From positions 48,287-112,286 of the forward strand of contig JAFSVH010000087.1 in assembly GCA_017450215.1 (NCBI GenBank): DNA of 64,000 nt, written 5' to 3'. This DNA is from Bacilli bacterium (GTDB taxonomy: Bacteria; Bacillota_I; Bacilli_A; ML615J-28; CAG-698). Made by a program: the position numbers and the translations under genes. The notes beneath the pieces were generated by a model, which was not told the origin of the DNA, made no database searches, and saw only the letters and a list, made by a program, of their open reading frames with translations. Numbering within the stretch: the first letter of the stretch is position 1; each line of letters opens with the position of its first letter. Of the stretch, positions 5,698 through 53,655 are shown in pieces.

Positions 5698-7713
5698 ATG
5701 AAAATTAAGAATATAATTACAAAATGTTTTATTTTCTTGTTTGCTATTGCCTCTTCTTTTATCTTTATTAACTTAAATATAAAAGCAGAAGATACAGTAA
5801 AAACAGATGATAATAATTATTATTATACTACAAAAAGTGAAGTGACAAGAGAGCTTGCTAGTGGTGTTGAATATACAATTAATTTAGGTAAAACTGGACA
5901 CACAGCAAGTAATTTTGAAGAGAGAGTTAGTATATTTAGTGCTGATATTAGTAAGAATAGTGATGTGAAAATTGCTACATGGGCACCTCAAAATGGTAGT
6001 CATACGGGATATACTAGAAAAGCACTACTTGATATTGCGAAAGATTATGAAGCTAATAATCCAGGTTGGATTGTTCTTGCTGGAATTAATGCAGATCAAT
6101 ACTTCCCTTCATTTGGTACTGGAATTGGTAAAGATGGTTCTTATATGTATGTACCTTCTCCATATTATCCTATGATTACAAATGGAGATAATTTGTTCAC
6201 TTATACTGCACTTGGTAATGCTAGTAAAAATAATGTAGTAGGATTTAAAAATGATGGTTCGAAAACACCACTTGTAAATGGTGAAAGAACTATTGATGGA
6301 TTCTATATTACTGTATATGGTGATAGTGATGAAGTTATTAAATGCATGAAGATTGATGGATTAAATTGTGATTTAGGAAGTCAAGGAACTGTAGTACTTG
6401 CATCATATAATGTTGATAAGAATACTCAAGCTAGAATTACTAGAACTGGTAATAAGTATTATGTAGTTAATAATGCTGAACTATCATATGTAAGCAATAC
6501 AACTGAGTGGTTAAGCTGGAATAATAGAGCTGTTGATGCTTTCTTTGGTAAAGGTGTTATTGATGAAGTTAGAGATAATGTTGATATTACAGGTGGTAAT
6601 AAATTTGCAATTGAGACTAATAATGAAGAATTAAAAGCAGTTCTAAAAAAAGATGTAAGAATTAAAGTTGAAGTAGAATATGCAGATGAATTTAAAGACA
6701 TTGAAGAAGCAATGGGATATCATACAATTCAAAGAAGAGGAGGGCTTGATCAAAATGTTGACAACGCCTATAATTCTAGATGCTATCCTAGAAGTATGTT
6801 TGGTTGTGATGCCAATGGTAAAGTATATTTAATGACTTGCTTTGGTGATAATGCTGGTCCAACTAAAGGTTTATATGCTCAAGAATTCAATGCTGTATGT
6901 AAGAAATATGGAATTACTGATGCATGGCAAATGGATGGTGGTGGTTCTGTTACTTCAATTGTTAGAGATGAAAATGGAATCTTAGATTATGCTGAAGCAT
7001 GTATTGAAGCATCTCATTCAGGTGAAAGAAAATTCTCTGGTTATCGATTAGTCTTAAGTGCGTTGTTCATTGTTATGAAAGTACCTAATGCATCTATAAC
7101 AGTTAATGAAAAATATTCAACTGGTGTTAAGATGATTTGTGATTTAAAAGATATTTTAGGTAATTATGATGAAGCTAAATTAAAATTCTTTGATGAAGAA
7201 GGTAGTAATGTCTCTAATTATTCACTTGATTTAAGTAAAGCAATCAATGAATGCAATATTGATGGGTTGGAAGCTAATAGGAATTATACATATGAATTAT
7301 ATGTAAAGAAGAATGGCTATGATGAACAAAGAACATTTGTTAATGGTGCATTAAATACACTTAAAATGATTCCAGTTTTGAAAGCTTTAGAGATTGTATA
7401 TACTGATGATGGATTTATGATTGAAGCTTCTATTGATGATAAGCAAAAAGCGTTGATTTCATTATATGCATGGTTTGGTAATAGAAAAATTGCATTCAAG
7501 CAAAAAGGAGAAGTATATCAAGCCTTCGTGGAGGCTGAAAAAAATTATAATCCTCTTGATGTAGCAATATCAGCTGATTGTATGTTAGATTCTAAATTAA
7601 CAAAGCATGATGATTGTGAGTTAGAACTTAACAATGTCAGTTATCCAGCTTTAGCATTCTTTGCTTATCCTGAGAAAGCATTAGAAGAAATATTAAAGAA
7701 TTTGTATAATTAA
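5698..7713 (+). CDS. Secreted phosphodiester glycosidase family protein, paralog of 1961-4000
   Basis: Signal peptide. Same 'AWQMDGGGSVTSIVRD' block. Roughly two-thirds aa identity to the upstream paralog with near-identical nucleotide patches. Confidence 0.5.
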   Translation: MKIKNIITKCFIFLFAIASSFIFINLNIKAEDTVKTDDNNYYYTTKSEVTRELASGVEYTINLGKTGHTASNFEERVSIFSADISKNSDVKIATWAPQNGSHTGYTRKALLDIAKDYEANNPGWIVLAGINADQYFPSFGTGIGKDGSYMYVPSPYYPMITNGDNLFTYTALGNASKNNVVGFKNDGSKTPLVNGERTIDGFYITVYGDSDEVIKCMKIDGLNCDLGSQGTVVLASYNVDKNTQARITRTGNKYYVVNNAELSYVSNTTEWLSWNNRAVDAFFGKGVIDEVRDNVDITGGNKFAIETNNEELKAVLKKDVRIKVEVEYADEFKDIEEAMGYHTIQRRGGLDQNVDNAYNSRCYPRSMFGCDANGKVYLMTCFGDNAGPTKGLYAQEFNAVCKKYGITDAWQMDGGGSVTSIVRDENGILDYAEACIEASHSGERKFSGYRLVLSALFIVMKVPNASITVNEKYSTGVKMICDLKDILGNYDEAKLKFFDEEGSNVSNYSLDLSKAINECNIDGLEANRNYTYELYVKKNGYDEQRTFVNGALNTLKMIPVLKALEIVYTDDGFMIEASIDDKQKALISLYAWFGNRKIAFKQKGEVYQAFVEAEKNYNPLDVAISADCMLDSKLTKHDDCELELNNVSYPALAFFAYPEKALEEILKNLYN

Positions 7714-7767
7714 TAATTTTGAGTTTTTTTTAGTAATATGATAAAATGGTAGTGGAGTGAAAGAAAA

Positions 7768-8298
7768 ATGAATTTTGATGAATTACTACTTAAGAGATAT
7801 AGTTGTAGAAACTATATTGATAAAGAAGTATCTTTAGATGATATTATAAAAATCGTTAATGCTGGTAGATTATCTCCATCTGCTAGAAATTGTCAACCTT
7901 GTGAATATTATGTGATAAGAGGAAAAGAGAAAGTAGAGCAAATTAGAACAGAGCTTCAAAGGCCAGGCTTCAATAAATTTGTTCCTAATGTTTCTTCGTT
8001 TATTGTCATTGCTTTAAATGAAGCAATGTATAAAACTAAATTAGATGGATTGATGAGAGATTTTACAGATATTGACACGGGCATAGCAGTACATGCTATG
8101 GCACTAGAAGCTACTAATATTGGTTTAGCAACTTGTATCATGGGTGGCTTTGATTATGATGGTATAGCAAGACTTGTTGGTATTAAGGATTCAGGTCGAG
8201 TAAGGCTTGTCTTAGCTGTTGGTTATAGTAATGATGGAAAAATTCAAGATAAAAACGAAAGAAGAAAAAGAATGGAGGAAGTAGTTAAATACTATTAA
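7768..8298 (+). CDS. Nitroreductase family protein
   Basis: 'RYSCRNY...SPSARNCQP' N-terminal nitroreductase signature; size 176 aa. Confidence 0.6.
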   Translation: MNFDELLLKRYSCRNYIDKEVSLDDIIKIVNAGRLSPSARNCQPCEYYVIRGKEKVEQIRTELQRPGFNKFVPNVSSFIVIALNEAMYKTKLDGLMRDFTDIDTGIAVHAMALEATNIGLATCIMGGFDYDGIARLVGIKDSGRVRLVLAVGYSNDGKIQDKNERRKRMEEVVKYY

Positions 8299-44526: not shown

Positions 44527-44603
44527 GTCCTAGTAGCTCAGTTGGATAGAGCGATAGCCTCCTAAGCTGTAGGTCGGGGGTTCAATTCCCTTCTAGGACG
44601 CCA
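44527..44603 (+). tRNA. tRNA-Arg (anticodon CCT), CCA encoded
   Basis: Cloverleaf readable. Acceptor GTCCTAG/CTAGGAC. D-arm GCTC/GAGC. Anticodon stem ATAGC/GCTGT with loop CTCCTAA. T-loop TTCAATT. 3' GCCA. Confidence 0.85.
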
Positions 44604-44657
44604 TATTAGTTGTACTATATTGATACCAAGAAAAATATCAATATTTGTAATAAAATT

Positions 44658-44688
44658 GGGTAAAATCGGTGTATTTTGCCCTTTTTTT
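44658..44688 (+). terminator. Rho-independent terminator after the tRNA (GGGTAAAAT cggtgt ATTTTGCCC + TTTTTTT)
   Basis: 9-bp stem (one G-U) plus a 7-T run. Confidence 0.6.
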
Positions 44689-44753
44689 ATGCTTTTATAG
44701 TAAAAATGATGAGAAATATAGGATAAAAATCTTAAAAAAAGTTGATCATCAAT

Positions 44754-44832
44754 AAATTTTTACACGATTACAATTGATTTTACACGTTTTACACGATTTG
44801 AAGACAATTTTACACGATTTTACACGATTTAA
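44754..44832 (+). repeat. Iteron-like direct repeats, family A: five copies of (TTT)TACACGATT(T) at about 10/20-bp phasing
   Basis: Copies start at 44761, 44781, 44790, 44811, 44821. Confidence 0.7.
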
Positions 44833-44837
44833 AAAAG

Positions 44838-44925
44838 AACCTTTTAGAGGTTCGTGAACGATTTGGGGGGTTCGTAAACGATTTGAGGGTTCGTGAACGA
44901 TTAGGGGGTTCGTGAACGATTTCAG
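44838..44925 (+). repeat. Iteron-like direct repeats, family B: four copies of GGGG(G)TTCGTGAACGATTT at 19-20 bp spacing, preceded by the palindrome GAACCTTTTAGAGGTTC
   Basis: Copies start at 44851, 44871, 44890, 44909. Each core has a mini-palindrome TCGT-GA-ACGA. Family A and family B share the ACGATT core. Confidence 0.7.
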
Positions 44926-45557
44926 ATTTTCATGCATTTTTTATCATTTACTAGTCTAAAAAATGTTCCTCTAGATACTCCTATTATTTTAGCAGCTTCT
45001 ATGTTGGTAAGTTGATGATTTATATATTGGGTTAGAATCTCATCGGTGTTAGGTGGGGTGACCGCTCTAGGTCTTCCAAACTTAACACCTTTTTCTTTTG
45101 CTATTCTTATTCCTTCCATCTGTCTTTCTCTTATGTTGTTCCTCTCATTCTCCGCAACAAAGCTTAATACTTGTAAAACAATATCACTTATAAACTTACC
45201 GACTAGATTCTTGCCTTCTATTCTAGTATCCAAAAGGGGCATATCTAATACTTTAATATCAGCACCTATTGTTTTTGTGATTCTTGTCCATTCTTCTAAT
45301 ATCATATGATAATTTCTACCTAAACGATCTATTGACTTAATAATCAGTAGGTCGTCTTTTTTTATTTTCTTTATTAATCTTTGGTAATTAGTTCTATTAA
45401 AGTCTTTCCCTGATTCTTTGTCTATATAAATGTACTTGTCTTCAATATTAAGAGTTTTAATCTCTTCATATTGCCTGTCTATTTTTTGTTGTTTCGTGGA
45501 AACACGTATGTATGCATATATCATTGAATTAATACCTCCGCTCTCATATATAGCCAT
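44922..45557 (-). CDS. Small serine recombinase (resolvase/invertase family) with C-terminal HTH
   Basis: N-terminal 'YAYIRVSTKQQ' catalytic-Ser motif, 'DRLGRN' motif, C-terminal 'AAKIIGVSRGTFFRL' HTH. 211 aa. Confidence 0.85.
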   Translation of the reverse strand: MAIYESGGINSMIYAYIRVSTKQQKIDRQYEEIKTLNIEDKYIYIDKESGKDFNRTNYQRLIKKIKKDDLLIIKSIDRLGRNYHMILEEWTRITKTIGADIKVLDMPLLDTRIEGKNLVGKFISDIVLQVLSFVAENERNNIRERQMEGIRIAKEKGVKFGRPRAVTPPNTDEILTQYINHQLTNIEAAKIIGVSRGTFFRLVNDKKCMKI

Positions 45558-45800
45558 AAAAGAAAAAATTATTCAAGCAAAACAGGTATAAAAAAAGAAG
45601 CATCAAAGAAGATATAAAAATGTATACCTTTTGATACTTCGTTATTTCTTTTATTATACCATGATTTTTATGAAAATTCCACGAAAAAATTGAATAATAA
45701 GCTAATTTTGAAATTTTTTGATATAACTTCAATCATTCTAATTAACCATACAATTTTAGACTAACAAGATTGTGTAATCTTAAAAAGAGGTAATTAGAAC

Positions 45801-46751
45801 ATGGATTTTATTAGATCACCATTAAATTATACTGGAAATAAATTTAGGATTTTAGATCAAATAGTTCCTTTATTTCCAAAAAAAATATCATGTATGATTG
45901 ATCTGTTCTGTGGTGGAGCTACTGTAGGATTGAATGTAAAAGCGAATAAAATAATTTTTGTTGATTCAAATGAGCATATCATCAATTTGTTGGTCTATTT
46001 ATCAAAGCATTCTTTCGAATCAGTACTTTGTTCTTTTGAAAACATTATTAATAAATATAATCTTTCTTATTCATATAAGTACGGATATAAAAAATATAGA
46101 GATTATTCAAAAAATAAAAATGATAATAATGGATTAAAAGAATACAATAATAAAGGCTTTTACCTGCTTCGTGATGACTATAATTCTTTGATAGATAAGA
46201 ATACAGATGAAGCCAATGCTATGCTTTATATATTAATGGTATATGCATTTAATAATGATATACGATTTAATTCGGATGGTGATTTTAATCTTCCAGTTGG
46301 AAAAACGGATTTAAATCGAATGAATGTAAATAAAATACGACAATATATAGATAGAATTAAAAGTATTAATGCAGAGTTTGTTTGTACTGACTTTACAAGT
46401 GATGATTTTCAATTATTGGTCAAAAAAGCTGACTTCATATATATGGATCCACCATATTTATTGGGTGATGCTGTATACAATTCTTGTTGGAACAATGAAA
46501 TGGAGCATAAATTATTAGATTTCATTGATTATATTAGAAATGAAAAAATTGATTTTGCCTTATCAAATGTTATGACAAAAATTGGAAAAACAAACGAGCC
46601 ACTTTCCTATTGGGTTTATAAAAATAAAGATTATTTAAAAGTAAATCACATTAAATATAATTATCGCAGCTCAAGTTATAACAAAATAATGCGCGATGCA
46701 AAAGAAGATGAAGTACTCATTTGTAATAAGAGGTATCGCCATGAAAATTAA
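45801..46751 (+). CDS. Dam-like (D12 class, alpha group) N6-adenine DNA methyltransferase 1
   Basis: 'YTGNKFRIL' N-terminus, motif I 'DLFCGGATVG', motif IV 'IYMDPPYL'. RBS AAGAGG. Confidence 0.8.
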   Translation: MDFIRSPLNYTGNKFRILDQIVPLFPKKISCMIDLFCGGATVGLNVKANKIIFVDSNEHIINLLVYLSKHSFESVLCSFENIINKYNLSYSYKYGYKKYRDYSKNKNDNNGLKEYNNKGFYLLRDDYNSLIDKNTDEANAMLYILMVYAFNNDIRFNSDGDFNLPVGKTDLNRMNVNKIRQYIDRIKSINAEFVCTDFTSDDFQLLVKKADFIYMDPPYLLGDAVYNSCWNNEMEHKLLDFIDYIRNEKIDFALSNVMTKIGKTNEPLSYWVYKNKDYLKVNHIKYNYRSSSYNKIMRDAKEDEVLICNKRYRHEN

Positions 46752-47751
46752 TAATAGACGATACATAGGATGTAAAACGAAATTATTAGACTTCATTTAT
46801 GATTCAGTTGAAAGATACAACATTTCTAAAGACTCGGTATTTGCTGATATTTTTGCAGGAACGGGAGTTGTAGCTTATAGATTTGCTTTAGAAGGATATA
46901 AAACAATTTTAAATGATACTTTATTTTCAAATTATGTGATTTATAAAACTATTTTTAATAATGAAATAATGAGAATAGATTTGTTGAAAAACGAAATAAA
47001 TTATTTTAATTCAATAGATAGTGATTCATTAAAAGCAAATTATTTTTCAAACACTTATGGTGGAAAATACTATTCTTTTGATAATGCCAAAAAAATAGGA
47101 TTTATAAGAGATTACATTGAAGAAAACAAACAAAAGTATAATGAAAGGGAATATTACTATTTAATTACCTGTTTATTATATGCATGCGATAAAATTGCAA
47201 ATACAGTTGGACATTTTGAATCATATCTACATAGTGCTCCTAAAGGAGAAAAACTTATGTTAGAAGAGTTTGAGATGAATAGCAATCTTCCTGAATCTTA
47301 TATATATAACGAAGATGCTAATAATCTTGCAAAAAAAATAAATGCAGATATTGTATATATTGATCCTCCTTACAATGCTAGACAATATGTGAATTTTTAT
47401 CATGTTTTAGAAAATTTAGCAAGGTGGAATAAGCCGACTGAATTTGAAGGAAAATCAATGAAATTTAAACGAGACAATCTTAAAAGTGATTATTGTAGAA
47501 GTAAAGCACCTTTATTGTTTGAGGATTTAATTCAATCACTAAAATGTAAATTAATTGTTGTCTCATATAATAATACATACAATGCAAAAAGTGTATCCTC
47601 TAATAATACAATTAGTGAAGATCAAATAATTGAAATATTAAGTAAAAAAGGAAATGTAACTATTAAGACAATTGATTATAGTGCATTTAATGCTGGCAAA
47701 ACAGATTTAAAAAATCACAAAGAATATTTGTATATATGTGAGGTATTTTAA
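46741..47751 (+). CDS. Dam-like (D12 class) N6-adenine DNA methyltransferase 2. Start chosen at ATG 46741 (RBS AAGAGG) rather than the ORF-track start 46696.
   Basis: 'RYIGCKTKLL' Dam N-terminal signature, motif I 'DIFAGTGVVA', motif IV 'VYIDPPYNA'. Overlaps MTase 1 by 11 nt. Confidence 0.8.
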   Translation: MKINNRRYIGCKTKLLDFIYDSVERYNISKDSVFADIFAGTGVVAYRFALEGYKTILNDTLFSNYVIYKTIFNNEIMRIDLLKNEINYFNSIDSDSLKANYFSNTYGGKYYSFDNAKKIGFIRDYIEENKQKYNEREYYYLITCLLYACDKIANTVGHFESYLHSAPKGEKLMLEEFEMNSNLPESYIYNEDANNLAKKINADIVYIDPPYNARQYVNFYHVLENLARWNKPTEFEGKSMKFKRDNLKSDYCRSKAPLLFEDLIQSLKCKLIVVSYNNTYNAKSVSSNNTISEDQIIEILSKKGNVTIKTIDYSAFNAGKTDLKNHKEYLYICEVF

Positions 47752-48668
47752 TGACAATACTTGAATACTATATTAAACAACAATCCATTGATATTTGGTA
47801 TGAAAAGTTCATTAGTAGTTCAAATAAACAAAGTGGAAAATCATTTAGTTATGTTAATACTAACTATAGAAATTTACTTTCATTTTTAATTCAATTTGAT
47901 CGATTTAGATCAAAAGTAGGAATTGAACGAAAAGATTGGAATGACAAATTGCCTGGTGGACAAGAATTAGACAAACATAGAATATCTAATTTGATTTTGT
48001 CGGGATTTATTCGAAAGGAAGACACTTATTATTACTATACACCAAAAGGTGTTGCTGCTTTGGATTTAATAGATAAAAACTATGGTGATTCCATAAAATG
48101 GATATTATTATACTTACTTCTTTTAGATTATAAAAGTGAAAATAGAAACTGCGATATTATTCACACTACAAAAGATCTTTTTTCAAAGTTACAATCAATT
48201 GGTTATACAAATGAATGTATATTAAATAGTCTAAGAAAAATAATAAAAGTAACTGATAAAATAAAACTTTTTAACGAAGATATATTTTGGTTGATCTCGT
48301 TTGTTAATGATGAAGATTTTATTAAAATGTATAAGAATAGTAGCGAACAAGAAAAAAACGATTTGAAAGAATTTGTAATTAATCGTTCAAAAGACGAACA
48401 TAGTACTGATTTGATAGCACACAAATACACACCTGGTGGAATTTATAGTGGAATAATGTTTAGGGAAGATGTTAAGGTATTTTATTATACATATAAAATA
48501 ATTGGAATACTTTCAGAGCCATTTGATTCATTTATTAATGAAATAATAAAAGTATATTGTGAAGATTTTTGTTCAGAAAATGACGCTGATATAATAAAAG
48601 AATTCATTAGCAGTCATAAAAGTATTTATATTAAAGTTAAACAAGAATTATTAATGGGGGTAAAGTAA
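47751..48668 (+). CDS. Hypothetical 305-aa protein, translationally coupled between the MTases and the GmrSD-like gene; candidate restriction endonuclease or specificity partner
   Basis: Start ATG overlaps the MTase 2 stop (TAATG). No recognised motif. A loose D...(D/E)xK candidate sits at 'TDLIAHK...FREDVK'. Position after paired MTases is where Type II REase genes sit. Confidence 0.3.
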   Translation: MTILEYYIKQQSIDIWYEKFISSSNKQSGKSFSYVNTNYRNLLSFLIQFDRFRSKVGIERKDWNDKLPGGQELDKHRISNLILSGFIRKEDTYYYYTPKGVAALDLIDKNYGDSIKWILLYLLLLDYKSENRNCDIIHTTKDLFSKLQSIGYTNECILNSLRKIIKVTDKIKLFNEDIFWLISFVNDEDFIKMYKNSSEQEKNDLKEFVINRSKDEHSTDLIAHKYTPGGIYSGIMFREDVKVFYYTYKIIGILSEPFDSFINEIIKVYCEDFCSENDADIIKEFISSHKSIYIKVKQELLMGVK

Positions 48669-48669
48669 A

Positions 48670-50742
48670 ATGCCAAATGTAAGACCTGATAGATTTGAAT
48701 TATTAAGATTTTTTAAATATGCTCCAAATACCCAATTTGTAATCCCTGTATATCAAAGAAATTATATATGGACTGCCAAAAAACAAGTAAGAAAATACTT
48801 AGATGATTATAAAGCTGTATTAAGTGGTGAGCGTGTAAAACATTTTATTGGTATTATAATGTACTTACAAATACAAAGAAGCATTGGATTTTTTGAATTT
48901 TCTGTAGTTGATGGTCAGCAGAGATTTGTAACCACATTTTTGATGCTATATGCTTTAAAGAAAATTGCTATGGAAGCTGGTAATCTTACTTTCGCGACTC
49001 AAATTAATGATTTATATTTAACAAATCAATATGCGAAAAATTATAATGATAAACTAAAATTAAAACCATTGGTATCTGATGATGATGTATTCAGCAAAAT
49101 AATAAAAGATGATCTACAGAATTTAACAAAAGAAGAAAAAAAGTCGAATGTTTATATTAATTATATTACTGTAAAAAAATATTTAAAAGAACTATATGGA
49201 CATTTTCAACTAGAACAAATGTTAGAAGCTTTTGATAAGTTTTATTTTGTTGCAATTCCATTAGATAGTAGTGAAGATGATGCTCAAAAGATTTTTGAAA
49301 CCATAAATTCTGCTGGTGCTGCATTGACAAAATCAGACTTAATTCGAAATTATATTTTGATGAATATGCAGAGCTATGAGCAAGATAGATTATACAAGGA
49401 ATATTGGTATCCTATGGAAAAATCTTTTGCTAGTTCTGGAAAAATAGAAAATTTCTTTAGAATGTTTTTGGCTAATAGAAATTACAATCTAAGTAATATG
49501 GAAGACATTTATGATGTTTTTCAAATTTGGTTTGATAAAAACAGATCAAATTATGGAATAGAACAGTCTTTAAAAACAATTTGTAAATATGCAAAATATT
49601 ATAATGATTTATTTATTAAAGAAAAGGTTGAAATTGCTCCAGAAATAGATGTTGCTTTAAAAGAATTCAAAAAAAATGCAATAGAACCTACTGCTCCTTT
49701 GTTAATGGAAATTTATAATCTATACGATAGTAAAGATGATAAGAACGACCGCCTTGTTTCAGCTATGGAATTTGCAAAGATTATTAATTTATTTAATATT
49801 TATAATGTTAGAAGAAATATTTGCAATCAAAGAACTGGTATATTAACTCGTATAGTTCCATTAATGTTGAAGTATGTTCTTGATAATTGCGATGGTGTCT
49901 ATTCAAAGATTTATGAACATTGTGTTCGTTATCTAGTAGACAATTCAAAAGGCAAGCAATCATTTATGCCAGATGATGAATATTTGAAATTAAATTTATC
50001 TGGTGCTAATGCTTATAGTTTGAGAAATTATGTAAAAACTATATTTGAAAAGATAGAGTCATATAATAATCCTGCAGTAATTGATTTTTCAAATTTAAGT
50101 ATAGAACACTTAATGCCACAGACTCCAACGGATGAGTGGCTTAAAACTTTGAATATAAAAAAGGAAGACTACGAATTTAATGTTCATAGACTTGGTAATT
50201 TAACTCTTGCTACGTCAGTAGATAATAGTAAAATGTCAAATAATCCATTTGAATATAAAAAGCAAGTTCTTCAAAATACATCTCATTTAAAAATGAATAT
50301 GGAGATAATTAACAAACCAACGTGGGGAATAAAAGAAATAGAGGAAAGAACTGCATATTTAATTCAAAAAATATGCGATTTATATCCATATGTTTCAGTT
50401 GGAGAGCAAACTGTTAATCATTATAATGTTTATTTAAAGAATGATAATTCTGACATATCTGCATTTTTGTTTTCGGATGAAACAATTGAAATTCAAGAGG
50501 GTAGCATAATAAAATGCTCATATAATAATTTCATTAGGGACTTGGTTGAAGATGGAATAATAAAGGAATCGGGAGAAAAATACGAATTTTTGCAACCATA
50601 TTCATTTAGTAATATTGAAGAAGCAACAAATACAATGGCACCCGATATTACAAATTGCTGGGAATCATGGGTAGACTATAATAAACAACCATTAAGTCTT
50701 GAATTAAGAGCAAAGTTGCTAAATTCTAAAGCAAAAAAATAG
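48670..50742 (+). CDS. GmrSD-family Type IV restriction-endonuclease-like protein (N-terminal DUF262 ParB-like NTPase/nickase + C-terminal DUF1524 His-Me finger nuclease)
   Basis: DUF262 'VVDGQQRF' (DGQQR) motif. C-terminal 'IEHLMPQTP...HRLGNLTLATSVDNSKMSNNPF' HNH-like DUF1524 motif. 690 aa. Starts 1 nt after the previous stop. Confidence 0.75.
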   Translation: MPNVRPDRFELLRFFKYAPNTQFVIPVYQRNYIWTAKKQVRKYLDDYKAVLSGERVKHFIGIIMYLQIQRSIGFFEFSVVDGQQRFVTTFLMLYALKKIAMEAGNLTFATQINDLYLTNQYAKNYNDKLKLKPLVSDDDVFSKIIKDDLQNLTKEEKKSNVYINYITVKKYLKELYGHFQLEQMLEAFDKFYFVAIPLDSSEDDAQKIFETINSAGAALTKSDLIRNYILMNMQSYEQDRLYKEYWYPMEKSFASSGKIENFFRMFLANRNYNLSNMEDIYDVFQIWFDKNRSNYGIEQSLKTICKYAKYYNDLFIKEKVEIAPEIDVALKEFKKNAIEPTAPLLMEIYNLYDSKDDKNDRLVSAMEFAKIINLFNIYNVRRNICNQRTGILTRIVPLMLKYVLDNCDGVYSKIYEHCVRYLVDNSKGKQSFMPDDEYLKLNLSGANAYSLRNYVKTIFEKIESYNNPAVIDFSNLSIEHLMPQTPTDEWLKTLNIKKEDYEFNVHRLGNLTLATSVDNSKMSNNPFEYKKQVLQNTSHLKMNMEIINKPTWGIKEIEERTAYLIQKICDLYPYVSVGEQTVNHYNVYLKNDNSDISAFLFSDETIEIQEGSIIKCSYNNFIRDLVEDGIIKESGEKYEFLQPYSFSNIEEATNTMAPDITNCWESWVDYNKQPLSLELRAKLLNSKAKK

Positions 50743-50749
50743 AGGACTA

Positions 50750-51409
50750 ATGATGATGACAAAAGGATTTATTTATATTTTAACTAATCCATCTTTCGAA
50801 GGTCATGATTGGGTGAAAATAGGCTACACAAAGAATGTGGAAAAAAGAAGAAAGGATTTGTCCACTACCGCATTACCTTTTGAATATGAGATATACGCAT
50901 ATTATGAATTACCAGAAGGAGTTGAACTAGCAGATAAAGCTGTTCATAATCTTATCCAACAATTGAATCCAGGCATTAGATTAAATCCCAATAGGGAATT
51001 CTTTGATATGAAACCAGAAGATGCATATAATTTATTAAATTGTATTGCTAAAATTAATGGTAAGGAACTAGTTAATGGACCTGGTAGAATAGAATATGAA
51101 AAAACTTTACAAATAAAAACAAAAGATTCGCCCAAAAAATATCCTAAAATGGATTGGCTAATGGAACAGGGAGTAATTAAGCCAGGTGATGACATTTATG
51201 TCGTAAACCATCCGGAAGATGTTGCAACTATAATTGATGCTGATACTGTGGAATATAATGGCGATAAATTATCTTTTAATCAATTTGGATGTAAAGTTAC
51301 TGGATGGAGTGCTATACAGACATATGCATTAATGAAAAAGGTTGGTTGCAGCGAAACACTTCATGAATTAAGATTGGCAAAAATGCAGGAAGTTAATTGG
51401 AAAGGTTAA
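50750..51409 (+). CDS. GIY-YIG-like (T5orf172) nuclease-domain protein with C-terminal DUF4357
   Basis: 'GFIYILTNPSFEGHDWVKIGYTKNVEKRRKDL' matches the T5orf172/GIY-YIG pattern. C-terminal region is of DUF4357 type. 7 bp after the GmrSD-like gene. Confidence 0.65.
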   Translation: MMMTKGFIYILTNPSFEGHDWVKIGYTKNVEKRRKDLSTTALPFEYEIYAYYELPEGVELADKAVHNLIQQLNPGIRLNPNREFFDMKPEDAYNLLNCIAKINGKELVNGPGRIEYEKTLQIKTKDSPKKYPKMDWLMEQGVIKPGDDIYVVNHPEDVATIIDADTVEYNGDKLSFNQFGCKVTGWSAIQTYALMKKVGCSETLHELRLAKMQEVNWKG

Positions 51410-51527: not shown

Positions 51528-53000
51528 GTGTTAGGAAAAGAACAATATTTGAAATTGCAAGAATTAAAAGAATTGGGATTATCAAAACTAAAAGTATCTG
51601 AAAAACTAAATCTTTCATATAAGACTGTTTGTAATTGGTGGGATAAGGACGAATCATATTTTGAATCTTTTGAAAAAGAACATGAGTTTATGCTTGATAA
51701 TTATCGTCAATACATTATTGAGATATTAAAAATAAGTCCTCAAATTCATAATACAGTAATATTAAGAAGGATTAAAGATGACTTTAAAGATTTTGATGTT
51801 CCAAAGCAAACATTTTTTAGGTACATTAAAAAACTGAGAGAACAATCTGGTTTAATTAAACCACCTAGAAAGTTTCAAATTAGAGAACAAACAGAACCAG
51901 GATATGAAGGACAAGTTGATTTTGGTCAGTATGTTATGCAAACGGCATACAAGAAGAACATAAGAATATATTTCTTTTGTATGACATTATCATATTCCAG
52001 AATGAAGTTTGCTTGTTTTAGTGTAGAACCATTTGATGCTAGAATGGTAGTAGATGCTCACATTGCCGCATTCAAGTACTTTGGTGGAAGACCGCAAATG
52101 CTAGTATATGACCAAGACAAAACAATGGTAGTATCAGAGAATTTAGGAGAAGTAGTATTTGTTAAAGAATTTGAAGATTTTATCAAACAAACAGGATTTT
52201 CAATTTATCTATGTAAAGGTTATGATCCATCTACTAAAGGTAAGATTGAAAAAACTGTAGACTTTGTTAAACATCAGTTTTTAGATGGAAGAATCTATTA
52301 TGGCCTTGATAGACTTAATTGTGAATTTATTGATTGGTTAGATCGTGAAGGAAATGGATTAATTAATGACACAATAAAGAAAGTTCCACGAGATATGTTT
52401 AAGCATGAATATCCAAAACTTCAAAAGTTTTATGAAATTAAAAATGATGATATTGTGGTTCATACTGTTTATCATGATACTGTTGAATATAAGGATAATC
52501 TGTATAAGCTTCCTCAAGCATTAGTTGATGAAGGAGATAGAATTAGAATTGAAAAGTACGACGATGATTTACTATTTTACCATGCATTAACAAGTGAACT
52601 ATTGTGTAAACATAAGATAGTTGGTGGAATGGGTAATATTGTAACACTAAAAGATGAGAAAATAGTTAATGATACAGTAGAAGAAGTATTATTAAAAGAT
52701 TTCAAAGATAGTGATGTAGCGATTAAGTTTATTAAAAGAATGAGAGAACAAAAACCAAGATATGTATATCCTCAGTGTAGAAGGCTCCAAAGTATGAGAA
52801 AGTATTATTCTGATAAGGCGATAATAGATGCAATGGAATATTGTGTTAGTGTTGACACATGTACGATATTTGAATTATCTAGTTATCTAATTTATAAAAT
52901 GGGAGATACAATAGCTAAGAAGTTTATAACTACACATGTTATAAGACATTATAAGGATAGAGCAGAAGAGATTAGAAAGGAGTTAATTAATAATGGCTGA
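51528..53000 (+). CDS. istA: IS21-family transposase IstA (HTH + DDE integrase core)
   Basis: N-terminal HTH 'LSKLKVSEKLNLSYKTVCNW'. DDE core 'GQVDFGQ'. 490 aa. GTG start with RBS AGGAGGTG. Confidence 0.85.
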   Translation: MLGKEQYLKLQELKELGLSKLKVSEKLNLSYKTVCNWWDKDESYFESFEKEHEFMLDNYRQYIIEILKISPQIHNTVILRRIKDDFKDFDVPKQTFFRYIKKLREQSGLIKPPRKFQIREQTEPGYEGQVDFGQYVMQTAYKKNIRIYFFCMTLSYSRMKFACFSVEPFDARMVVDAHIAAFKYFGGRPQMLVYDQDKTMVVSENLGEVVFVKEFEDFIKQTGFSIYLCKGYDPSTKGKIEKTVDFVKHQFLDGRIYYGLDRLNCEFIDWLDREGNGLINDTIKKVPRDMFKHEYPKLQKFYEIKNDDIVVHTVYHDTVEYKDNLYKLPQALVDEGDRIRIEKYDDDLLFYHALTSELLCKHKIVGGMGNIVTLKDEKIVNDTVEEVLLKDFKDSDVAIKFIKRMREQKPRYVYPQCRRLQSMRKYYSDKAIIDAMEYCVSVDTCTIFELSSYLIYKMGDTIAKKFITTHVIRHYKDRAEEIRKELINNG

Positions 53001-53655
53001 TAATATTGAAATACAAGCACTTGCTAGAGTACTTAATTTACAAAACATAGCTAATGGTAATATTGATCTAAATAATGAAAGAATATCAAATAAAGATTAT
53101 TTATATCAGATTTTACTTGAAGAAGTAAATATTAGAAATAAAAACAAGTTAATGGATATTAGAAAAATGGCTAAGCTTCCTAATAAGGTATTTGATGAAA
53201 CAAGAATAACTGAAGGATTAAAGTGGCAATTATCTAAACTTAAAGAATTTGATTTTAAATTAAACAAACAAAACATATTTATTGTTGGGGACTGTGCAAC
53301 AGGAAAAACTTCTCTTGCAACACTATTAGGCAATAAAGCACTTGACAAAGGTGCTAAAGTATCTTACATTACTTATGATGATTTAGTTATTGAATCTAAA
53401 ATAAAGAAAAGAGTATGGAATCATATTTTAGAATCTGATGTACTAATACTAGATGATGTGTTTTATTTACCACCAACTGAAGAAGAACTAATTCAAATAT
53501 ATAAGGTTTTAATGTTTTTACAAGAAACAAGGAGTATTATTGTAATTACTAATAGAAGCTTATCTAGTTGGAAAGATATGAAGGTAGATACACATTTAAT
53601 TGAGACATTGCAAAAAAGACTGATGCAGAACGCTCAAATAATTACACTTGGCTAA
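52993..53655 (+). CDS. istB: IS21-family helper ATPase IstB
   Basis: Walker A 'FIVGDCATGKTSLA'. Walker B 'VLILDDVF'. Overlaps istA by 8 nt. Confidence 0.85.
   Translation: MADNIEIQALARVLNLQNIANGNIDLNNERISNKDYLYQILLEEVNIRNKNKLMDIRKMAKLPNKVFDETRITEGLKWQLSKLKEFDFKLNKQNIFIVGDCATGKTSLATLLGNKALDKGAKVSYITYDDLVIESKIKKRVWNHILESDVLILDDVFYLPPTEEELIQIYKVLMFLQETRSIIVITNRSLSSWKDMKVDTHLIETLQKRLMQNAQIITLG

Follow-up and report, generated by a model that had tools for sequence, protein, structure and literature searches.

Which function is carried by a protein that stands between two DNA methylases and a nuclease gene? This question is raised by gene X (47751-48668, + strand), which encodes a protein of 305 amino acids (aa) from an ATG start in the window, i.e., the whole analyzed stretch of 64,000 nucleotides from a Bacilli bacterium. 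An earlier, sequence-only reading described X as an orphan that is either a divergent restriction endonuclease or a new component that links the nucleases encoded downstream with methylation status. Here, X is predicted to be a stand-alone target-recognition module without a nuclease domain. Our main reading, to which we assign a probability of roughly 0.6, is that X recognizes the DNA target, without catalytic activity of its own, as a subunit of a restriction system that is protected by methylation and comprises the methylases M1 and M2, X and a GmrSD-family protein.

The cassette and its borders

The open reading frame of X is real and coupled on both sides, as initially claimed. The junction between M2 and X reads TTTTAATGACA, in which the last A of the M2 stop codon TAA (47749-47751) is the first A of the X ATG. 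X closes with a TAA stop codon whose last base is 48668, and after one intervening base the ATG of GmrSD begins at 48670. Shine-Dalgarno-like GAGG and GGGGG lie approximately 8 nt ahead of the ATGs of X and GmrSD, and no terminator-like site is present on the + strand between 45800 and 51409. The neighbours also correspond to those first reported. Upstream are two D12-class adenine methyltransferases, namely the N6-adenine DNA methyltransferase M1 (45801-46751, +; Pfam MethyltransfD12, 2.3e-27; TIGR00571, 4.5e-36) and M2 (46696-47751, +; Pfam, 1.3e-29; PADLOC PDLC03373, 6.9e-113), the true start of which is probably the ATG at 46741, judging by homologues. Downstream follow a GmrSD-family protein with DUF262 and DUF1524 (48670-50742, +; Pfam GmrSD_N, 7.4e-30; GmrSD_C, 2.2e-25) and a T5orf172/MUG113 (GIY-YIG-like) protein (50750-51409, +; Pfam T5orf172, 1.2e-13; PADLOC PDC-S57, 1.6e-49). 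The T5orf172 gene is an accessory that not all cassettes contain: it is found after GmrSD in the related loci L001-L003 and is absent in L004, L007, L008, L011 and L014.

A tRNA-Arg(CCT) gene (44527-44603, +; ARAGORN), located directly after a SpoU-family methylase gene and before a resolvase, is the probable left edge of an inserted island. The serine resolvase/recombinase (44922-45557, -; Pfam Resolvase, 3.8e-26) is the mobility gene of this island, and genes for a resolvase or an integrase likewise adjoin the cassettes of L004, L007 and L008. On the right, the cassette is bounded by an IS21-family element (51528-53655, +) with istA (51528-53000) and istB (52993-53655), recognized by Pfam rve and IstB_IS21.

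The methylases appear to be two parts of a known whole. M1 is matched by the PADLOC model MTase_II PDLC03383 (1.6e-84) and by positions 417-716 of the fused model PDLC03292 (722 positions), and is similar to the C-terminal half of type IIS methylases in which two domains are fused. M2 is matched by positions 77-408 of the same fused model and resembles the N-terminal half. The two methylases, one per strand, of a type IIS restriction-modification (R-M) system are thus found here through homology to the halves of MTase_II models of 646-722 positions, and the site of M1 and M2 is presumably asymmetric. The closest plasmid relatives of M2 (45-47% identity) adjoin type IIS restriction endonucleases of the AlwI family. 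M1 and M2 precede X in every locus examined, whatever the effector (the short contig L005 reaches M2 only). Across these loci, identity to the proteins of the window amounts to 50-66% for M1, 55-68% for M2 and 32-53% for X.

Fold, family and conserved motifs of X

The initial statement that X contains no recognizable motif holds for profile and sequence libraries, as no match better than E ~0.05 is obtained in Pfam, NCBIfam, PADLOC or PHROGs, nor does X match any PDB chain in sequence. The term orphan has to be dropped, since 17 full-length homologues (39-65% identity) exist and a profile search for X yields 138 representative protein clusters. All members are unnamed or called 'hypothetical', with the exception of WP_167845058.1 ('McrB family protein'). 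A tblastn search of PLSDB plasmids gave a chance match only, and no relatives were found in viral contigs.

The AlphaFold model of X (pLDDT 89.8, pTM 0.89) consists of 19 helices, and its sole two short strands (87-90 and 93-96) form the wing of a winged helix-turn-helix fold, i.e., a helix bundle with a beta-hairpin wing. According to the fold search, this winged helix is of the MarR/PadR kind. The domain spans approximately residues 44-108 (47880-48074, +) and includes the motif GQExDKHR (residues 70-77; 47958-47981, +), which runs into the start of the helix preceding the wing. The most conserved motif of the family, S..KQSGKxFSYxNTNFR (residues 22-40; 47814-47870, +), served as the search pattern to find related loci. 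S22, G29, K30, F32, S33, N38 and R40 are invariant in the homologue alignment. These residues form a loop of low model confidence (pLDDT 56-77) that may touch DNA or a partner protein. A further conserved block, DLIAHKYxxGGxY (residues 220-232; 48408-48446, +), comprises a short helix (221-225) followed by a loop, with a mean pLDDT of 83-88 in the model. K225, G230 and Y232 are invariant, while D220 and H224 are near-invariant. One property that does not favour a DNA-reading role is the overall charge, as X is not basic (pI 6.55).

It is from this last region that the sequence-only reading took its loose D...(D/E)xK candidate. Conservation of D220, H224, K225, D240 and K242 is confirmed, but these residues are found in or beside alpha-helices and not on beta-strands: D220 borders helix 221-225 and D240-x-K242 lies in the middle of helix 234-253. 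A PD-(D/E)xK core is excluded by the helical model, which has no central beta-sheet, and fold searches with the model returned no structural match to any nuclease. The idea of a divergent restriction endonuclease could then be maintained only for an enzyme whose catalytic fold is new and all-helical. Conserved D126, D187, D220, H224, K225 and D240 and the place of X in the endonuclease position of an M-M-R cassette would fit such an enzyme. We nevertheless regard it as highly improbable: the model is confident and lacks a beta-sheet core, the PADLOC restriction endonuclease models do not match X, and a recognized nuclease is fused or encoded next door in almost every X relative and would be superfluous beside a DNA-cutting X. 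Fold-search matches of X to FokI, AlwI/N.BspD6I and BpuJI are not significant, and hhalign gives a probability of 0.1% against AlwI-family restriction endonucleases. The N-terminal likeness between F-S-Y-x-N-T-N-F-R...W in X and F-N-L-G-D-T-S-F-R-R...W in the AlwI family is not significant either.

Partners of the X module

Proteins of 430-520 aa in 57 clusters carry X and a C-terminal HNH domain in all but P0024 and P0151, and X::HNH is the commonest architecture. The HNH domain contains YLEVHHLIPREF...LCPxCHRxxH and resembles the HNH of McrA. One X::HNH orthologue is that of Subdoligranulum sp. CAG:314 (FR900989.1, locus L019, 8001-9431). Less frequently, X is fused to an AAA_5 McrB-like motor (eight clusters) or to NOV_C, a PD-(D/E)xK domain (one protein). 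The remaining clusters are stand-alone proteins or fragments. It had been argued that the position of X holds the endonuclease in MTase-MTase-R cassettes. This is correct for the approximately 57 related clusters, but the catalytic part in those proteins is the C-terminal HNH domain that the window protein is without: X lacks an HNH/His-Me finger motif and ends, in the alignment, before the HNH domain with YLEVHH...CPxCH of its relatives of approximately 460 aa. In McrB-type fusions, X forms the N-terminal part, a position that holds the DNA-binding domain in canonical McrB homologues (bioRxiv 10.64898/2026.08.31.748284; PMC12707154). Based on the predicted fold and on this N-terminal place in both McrB-type and HNH proteins, we infer that X binds DNA.

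Stand-alone X is followed by GmrSD in nine distinct loci, by a McrB-like motor and a LlaJI-type nuclease in three and by nothing in one. In L025, the McrB-like protein counts 370 aa and is an AAA+ motor only, with the LlaJI-type nuclease behind it, which leaves X as the only candidate DNA reader. L006 and L033 have a similar layout (X, McrB-like, LlaJI/McrC-like). The McrB-like partner of L006 carries approximately 280 residues ahead of its AAA+ domain, and the same is deduced from protein length for L033; these extra residues could bind DNA themselves, which counts against our main reading. In L020, L021 and L028, the X and McrB parts are fused, giving the order M1-M2-[X::McrB]-[LlaJI R2 or McrC]. 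L020 belongs to Mycoplasmopsis gallinacea (CP047225.1), with M1/M2 at 6050-8013 of the locus.

In the window, the GmrSD protein has the DGQQR motif of DUF262 (residue 81) and the EHxxP His-Me motif of DUF1524 (EHLMPQ...HRLGNLTL...N, residue 479), as is characteristic of GmrSD-type enzymes, followed by a DUF4357-like C-terminal tail without meaningful similarity to the C-terminal domain of the T5orf172 protein. PADLOC matches are Orf5, HEC-06, mREase_IV and SspE. The catalytic motifs are intact in eight X-linked orthologues. The junction between X and GmrSD measures -11 to +12 nt in eight distinct loci with sequence; the ninth, known from gene calls only, has a 16-nt overlap. Between the nine GmrSD-linked loci, X shares 31-53% identity, except for the close pair L008/L012 (90%). 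Pairwise identities of X and of GmrSD correlate with r = 0.84, a value inflated by the one close pair. In addition, L008 and L011 share 73/71% identity in M1/M2 and 46/56% in X/GmrSD, and because of this difference X and GmrSD are considered to travel as one unit, apart from the methylases. We therefore propose GmrSD as the nuclease partner of X.

The same material bears on a rival explanation, in which M1-M2-X is a decayed type IIS system. X would be an X::HNH protein minus its HNH domain, hence an inert DNA-binding remnant left with orphan methylases, and GmrSD an independent type IV neighbour. The prevalence of the HNH-fused form agrees with such decay, and L034, with M1-M2-X and no effector downstream, indicates that decay does happen and also speaks against our main reading. 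Two further points have this double weight. No X::GmrSD fusion occurs among the 138 clusters, and GmrSD genes often neighbour R-M genes within defence islands (PMC4619093), which makes mere adjacency a weak argument. Still, an inert remnant is not expected to keep its junction with GmrSD over eight loci at the divergence seen for X, nor to co-vary with GmrSD and recombine jointly with it relative to M1/M2. The stand-alone X proteins of the alignment retain every family motif, which argues for continued selection, and the motor-only McrB partner in L025 is difficult to combine with an inert X. Overall, we consider this explanation unlikely.

A regulatory role deserves consideration as well, given the kind of winged helix and the location of X between the M and R genes. 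X could act as a regulator or self-recognition sensor that binds the methylated site or the operon promoter and restrains or times the nuclease, in the manner of an antitoxin or of a controller (C) protein. Enzymes of the SspE type have their activity modulated by the modified site itself (background cited through PMC12707154). However, a place at the N-terminus of HNH nucleases, McrB motors and a NOV_C nuclease would be unexpected for a pure transcription factor. The controller position is already filled in related loci, which have their own HTH_3/HTH_26 genes (63-66 aa) or an HTH_3::M1 fusion ahead of the methylases. With 305 aa and no match to Pfam HTH_3, X is moreover three times as large as typical C proteins (HTH_3 dimers of ~80-100 aa) and was rejected as a member of that group. 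This makes a regulatory X a distinctly unlikely option, although it is not as improbable as a helical nuclease.

Proposed role and comparison with known systems

Taken as a target-recognition subunit, X would function as follows. M1 and M2 would each methylate adenine, one strand apiece, at a presumably asymmetric site, as suggested by their homology to the halves of FokI/AlwI-type fused methylases. X would read the same site when it is unmethylated, via its winged helix and conserved loops. It would then recruit or license the NTPase/His-Me nuclease GmrSD, whose gene starts one base downstream, upon which foreign DNA would be cut or nicked. The initial suggestion of a component that couples methylation status to downstream nucleases comes close to this comparative evidence, in that X looks like a non-catalytic DNA-reading module serving a nuclease.

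A broader version regards X as a 'specificity subunit' of novel fold that is portable: it would co-evolve with a single methylase pair and serve at least five back-ends (HNH, McrB-McrC, McrB-LlaJI, NOV_C and GmrSD). In the window, it would make a GmrSD-family NTPase/nuclease act as the restriction arm of an R-M system that is sequence-specific and protected by methylation. We give this version even odds. If true, M1, M2, an S-like reader and GmrSD constitute an undescribed R-M architecture, and the X modules make up a new family of DNA-recognition proteins that none of the profile libraries searched contains; its roughly 140 clusters stem for the most part from Bacillota and Mycoplasmatota metagenomes. 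One reader and one methylase pair on five effectors would represent a natural experiment on activating unrelated nucleases, and the HNH-fused relatives would be candidate new type IIS enzymes. Defence-finding pipelines would score the GmrSD protein as a stand-alone type IV system and the methylases as orphans or an incomplete type II system.

Type IIS enzymes (FokI, the AlwI/N.BspD6I family, BpuJI) join a winged-helix recognition module to a separable nuclease, as proposed for X, and M1/M2 correspond to the separately encoded halves of fused two-domain adenine methylases, which accompany AlwI-family restriction endonucleases on plasmids. X of the window has no cleavage domain in cis.

The supply of DNA binding in trans, as predicted for X, has a counterpart in the separate subunits LlaI.R1 and BsuMI.R1, which bind DNA in 'non-canonical' three-gene McrBC systems (bioRxiv 10.64898/2026.08.31.748284). 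Like X, these are separate proteins of ~300-330 aa encoded just upstream of motor and nuclease genes in a methylase-protected system. X occupies the R1 position in L025, L006 and L033 (M...X-McrB-like-LlaJI/McrC-like), while the window has this layout with GmrSD as the partner instead of McrBC. Homology to LlaI.R1, suggested by the context of L006, was rejected because the described fold of LlaI.R1 is alpha/beta, with a seven-stranded, ERCC4-like sheet and a second mixed domain, whereas X is helical with one winged helix. The best reading is that X is a putative analogue, in function, of both LlaI.R1 and BsuMI.R1, without homology to LlaI.R1.

LlaJI combines two methyltransferases with R1, i.e., an N-terminal B3-like DNA reader plus a McrB AAA+ motor, and the nuclease R2, comparable to L020, L021 and L028, in which the AAA+ part of the fusions is matched by PADLOC REase_II PDLC03547. 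Positions 1-250 of this model remain unmatched. The N-terminal part of the fusions, the proposed reader, is X and not a B3 domain. The LlaJI methylases are cytosine-5 enzymes, whereas those described here are D12 adenine enzymes, and the window is without McrB or McrC. The N-terminal domain of LlaJI reads an unmodified asymmetric site (PMC12707154).

For the nuclease partner, the closest counterparts are GmrSD/BrxU and SspE, which share DUF262 (DGQQR) and DUF1524 (EHxxP) and are reflected in the PADLOC mREase_IV and SspE matches. Characterized GmrSD and BrxU enzymes target hmC/glc-hmC DNA on their own. Such a preference for modified DNA argues against our main reading, in which the proposed role would be new for the family outside SspE; the protective methylases in the operon suggest the opposite polarity for this GmrSD protein. 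In the literature examined, no separate specificity protein is described for GmrSD/BrxU or SspE, and we found no report in which GmrSD is combined with adenine methylases and a DNA reader of its own. SspE itself, a DUF262-DUF1524 protein, provides the restriction in a system protected by modification (PMC12707154), so this domain architecture can serve such a system, although SspE pairs with phosphorothioation and not with methylation. If our reading of X is true, the borrowing of modification-dependent-type nucleases by modification-protected systems, as in LlaJI, LlaI and BsuMI, extends from McrBC to GmrSD.

Probable operon and surrounding island

The 305-aa protein under study, here called X, is encoded on the + strand (47751-48668), downstream of two D12-class adenine methyltransferases, M1 (45801-46751) and M2 (46696-47751), and upstream of a GmrSD protein with DUF262 and DUF1524 domains (48670-50742) and a T5orf172 protein (50750-51409). 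The ATG of X and the TAA of M2 have one base in common, within TTTTAATGACA, while the TAA of X ends one base ahead of the next gene's ATG. Both starts are preceded by a purine-rich ribosome-binding site. Sequence junctions and domain matches thus confirm the ORF, its tight coupling and its neighbours as described in the sequence-only reading. As starts and stops are tightly joined and the + strand contains no terminator-like site in 45800-51409, the five genes of 45801-51409 look like a single operon.

On this chromosome (G+C ~28%), a tRNA-Arg(CCT) and a divergently oriented serine resolvase (44527-45557) lie to the left of the cassette and an IS21 istA/istB pair (51528-53655) to the right, which suggests a tRNA-adjacent mobile defence island. 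Resolvases or integrases also flank related cassettes (fetched loci L004, L007 and L008). The T5orf172/MUG113 (GIY-YIG-like) gene matches the PADLOC candidate PDC-S57 (1.6e-49), and the last 90 residues of its product give weak matches to the C-termini of methyltransferase models, CcrM included. It also follows GmrSD in L001-L003 and is missing from most other X-GmrSD loci, and is therefore regarded as an optional add-on. Some loci have a controller-like HTH gene of 63-66 aa immediately ahead of M1 (L008, 5838-6029; L021, 5846-6046), and the M1 of L033 (4856-5986) is itself fused to an HTH_3 domain. The window's 243-bp gap upstream of M1 is without such a gene.

Family members and their effectors

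In line with the earlier statement that X lacks a recognisable motif, no match was found in Pfam, NCBIfam, PADLOC, PHROGs or PDB sequences. Its description as an orphan is not borne out: a word-indexed search returned 17 full-length homologues (39-65% identity) and one 483-aa protein in which the X module precedes an HNH domain, and a profile search with the family in 1.84 billion representative proteins yielded 138 clusters. Fragments excluded, both searches comprise 40 stand-alone proteins of 290-345 aa, 57 of 430-520 aa and 8 of 580-930 aa. Of the members looked up, only WP_167845058.1, a 'McrB family protein' of Mycoplasmopsis gallinacea, has a name; the others are 'hypothetical' or unnamed. 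The M. gallinacea locus (L020) required table 4 for translation and a called gene in L007 (5996-6874) has an in-frame stop under table 11, so some carriers are Mycoplasmatota that read TGA as Trp.

All but 2 of the 57 mid-length proteins carry a C-terminal HNH domain, YLEVHHLIPREF...LCPxCHRxxH, resembling that of McrA. P0151 (481 aa) combines X with a NOV_C PD-(D/E)xK domain (2.9e-12), and the ~160-aa tail of P0024 (463 aa) has no Pfam match; a 795-aa variant, P0179, belongs to the same cluster as P0024. The eight long proteins all join X to a McrB-type AAA_5 motor on its C-terminal side. X is N-terminal in these fusions, and canonical McrB homologues carry at their N-terminus a DNA-binding domain whose fold differs while its role is constant (preprint 10.64898/2026.08.31.748284; review PMC12707154).

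The genes of 34 fetched loci were classed by local phmmer and precomputed Pfam matches. M1-M2 precede X in every locus whose contig extends far enough upstream. X is fused to HNH in L005 (contig begins inside M2), L015, L017, L018, L019, L029 and L031, and to McrB, followed by McrC or a LlaJI-type nuclease, in L020, L021 and L028. Separate McrB-like and LlaJI-type nuclease genes follow X in L006, L025 and L033, and GmrSD follows it in the window, L001, L004, L007, L008, L011, L012, L014 and the locus of P0038. L034 (5083-7954), where a short M1 (275 aa) and M2 precede a stand-alone X that no nuclease gene follows, is probably a decaying system and the sole exception to the rule that an effector follows X. 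The McrB-like protein of L025 (370 aa) matches the AAA+ part only of the LlaJI.R1-like PADLOC model, leaving X as the sole candidate DNA reader. Across all architectures, identity to the window proteins is 50-66% for M1, 55-68% for M2 and 32-53% for X; the better conservation of the methylases suggests that the target site is shared or similar. Among plasmid-borne methylases, the nearest relatives (45-47% identity) sit with AlwI-family type IIS REases.

Linkage of X to GmrSD

The X-to-GmrSD junction measures -11 to +12 nt in the eight GmrSD-type loci with sequence in hand, among which X is 31-53% identical (close pair L008/L012: 90%); for the ninth, that of P0038, gene calls only indicate a 16-nt overlap. 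The GmrSD motifs DGQQR and EHxxP...HRxGNLTL...N are intact. X and GmrSD are correlated in their pairwise identities (r = 0.84, n = 28), with one close pair inflating the value. L008 and L011 share 73/71% identity in their methylases versus 46/56% in X/GmrSD, which indicates that the latter two move as a unit, apart from the methylases. Since the clusters found include no X::GmrSD fusion and GmrSD genes are generally frequent beside R-M genes (PMC4619093), their functional link is one that we infer. Given the short junctions and this joint movement, independent neighbours, i.e., a decayed R-M system beside an ordinary type IV enzyme, are rather unlikely.

A further GmrSD paralogue, whose DUF4357 tail is clear, stands in tandem with the first (X-GmrSD-GmrSD) in L008 (11017-13122), as well as in L009, L010 and, partially, L012 (11017-12459); members of the family may act as hetero-oligomers, or else the additional copy may be a type IV enzyme in its own right. 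In L011, the X-linked GmrSD is immediately followed by a gene (6400-7233) for a PLD-nuclease protein that bears a DpnI_C winged helix. This domain reads methylated GATC in DpnI, and the L011 protein looks methyl-adenine-directed; it adjoins an adenine-methylating cassette.

Predicted fold and proposed role

The AlphaFold2 model of X (18-sequence alignment; pLDDT 89.8, pTM 0.89) comprises 19 helices and one beta-hairpin. Residues ~44-108 form a winged helix, with the conserved GQExDKHR motif leading into the start of the helix ahead of the wing, and Pfam HTH_45 matches sub-threshold in 4 of 20 family members. The D...(D/E)xK candidate, which had raised the reading of X as a divergent REase, is conserved in the family, yet its residues lie in or beside helices. 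That reading is rejected: the helical model excludes a PD-(D/E)xK core, and the proposed fold search gave no Foldseek match in the PDB below E 0.3. That X is a nuclease of a novel, helical fold, to which such conserved residues might belong, is highly improbable. The most conserved motif (47844-47939), F-S-Y-x-N-T-N-F-R with W ~23 residues on, is reminiscent of the invariant N-terminal sequence in REases of the AlwI family, F-N-L-G-D-T-S-F-R-R, where W occupies position 43 (L023, 7962-8090). With an hhalign probability of 0.1% against these REases, and best Foldseek TM-scores of 0.26-0.31, with the type IIS nickase N.BspD6I, kinship with FokI/AlwI-type recognition domains is unproven and the motif likeness may be chance.

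The other earlier suggestion, a component coupling methylation status to the nucleases, is broadly supported in a more specific form, with X as a probable target-recognition subunit that belongs to an unannotated modular family. M1 and M2 would methylate both strands of a presumably asymmetric site; X would read the unmethylated site and recruit or license GmrSD, which would cut via its NTPase and His-Me nuclease. In its simple form, the scheme would be realised in a single chain by the X::HNH relatives, as type IIS-like enzymes; the McrB-linked relatives would be its LlaJI-like or LlaI-like forms. Weighing the winged helix against the fusions to nucleases and motors, a role of X as regulator or self-sensor is improbable.

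In the literature searched, no GmrSD enzyme is described as pairing with adenine methylases plus a dedicated reader. A precedent for the proposed role of GmrSD is SspE, which shares its DUF262-DUF1524 architecture and carries out restriction in the phosphorothioate-based Ssp system (PMC12707154). In its proposed function, X is closest to LlaI.R1 and BsuMI.R1, which bind DNA as separate subunits of three-gene McrBC systems. As LlaI.R1 has an ERCC4-like alpha/beta fold (preprint 10.64898/2026.08.31.748284), X would be its analogue rather than its homologue.
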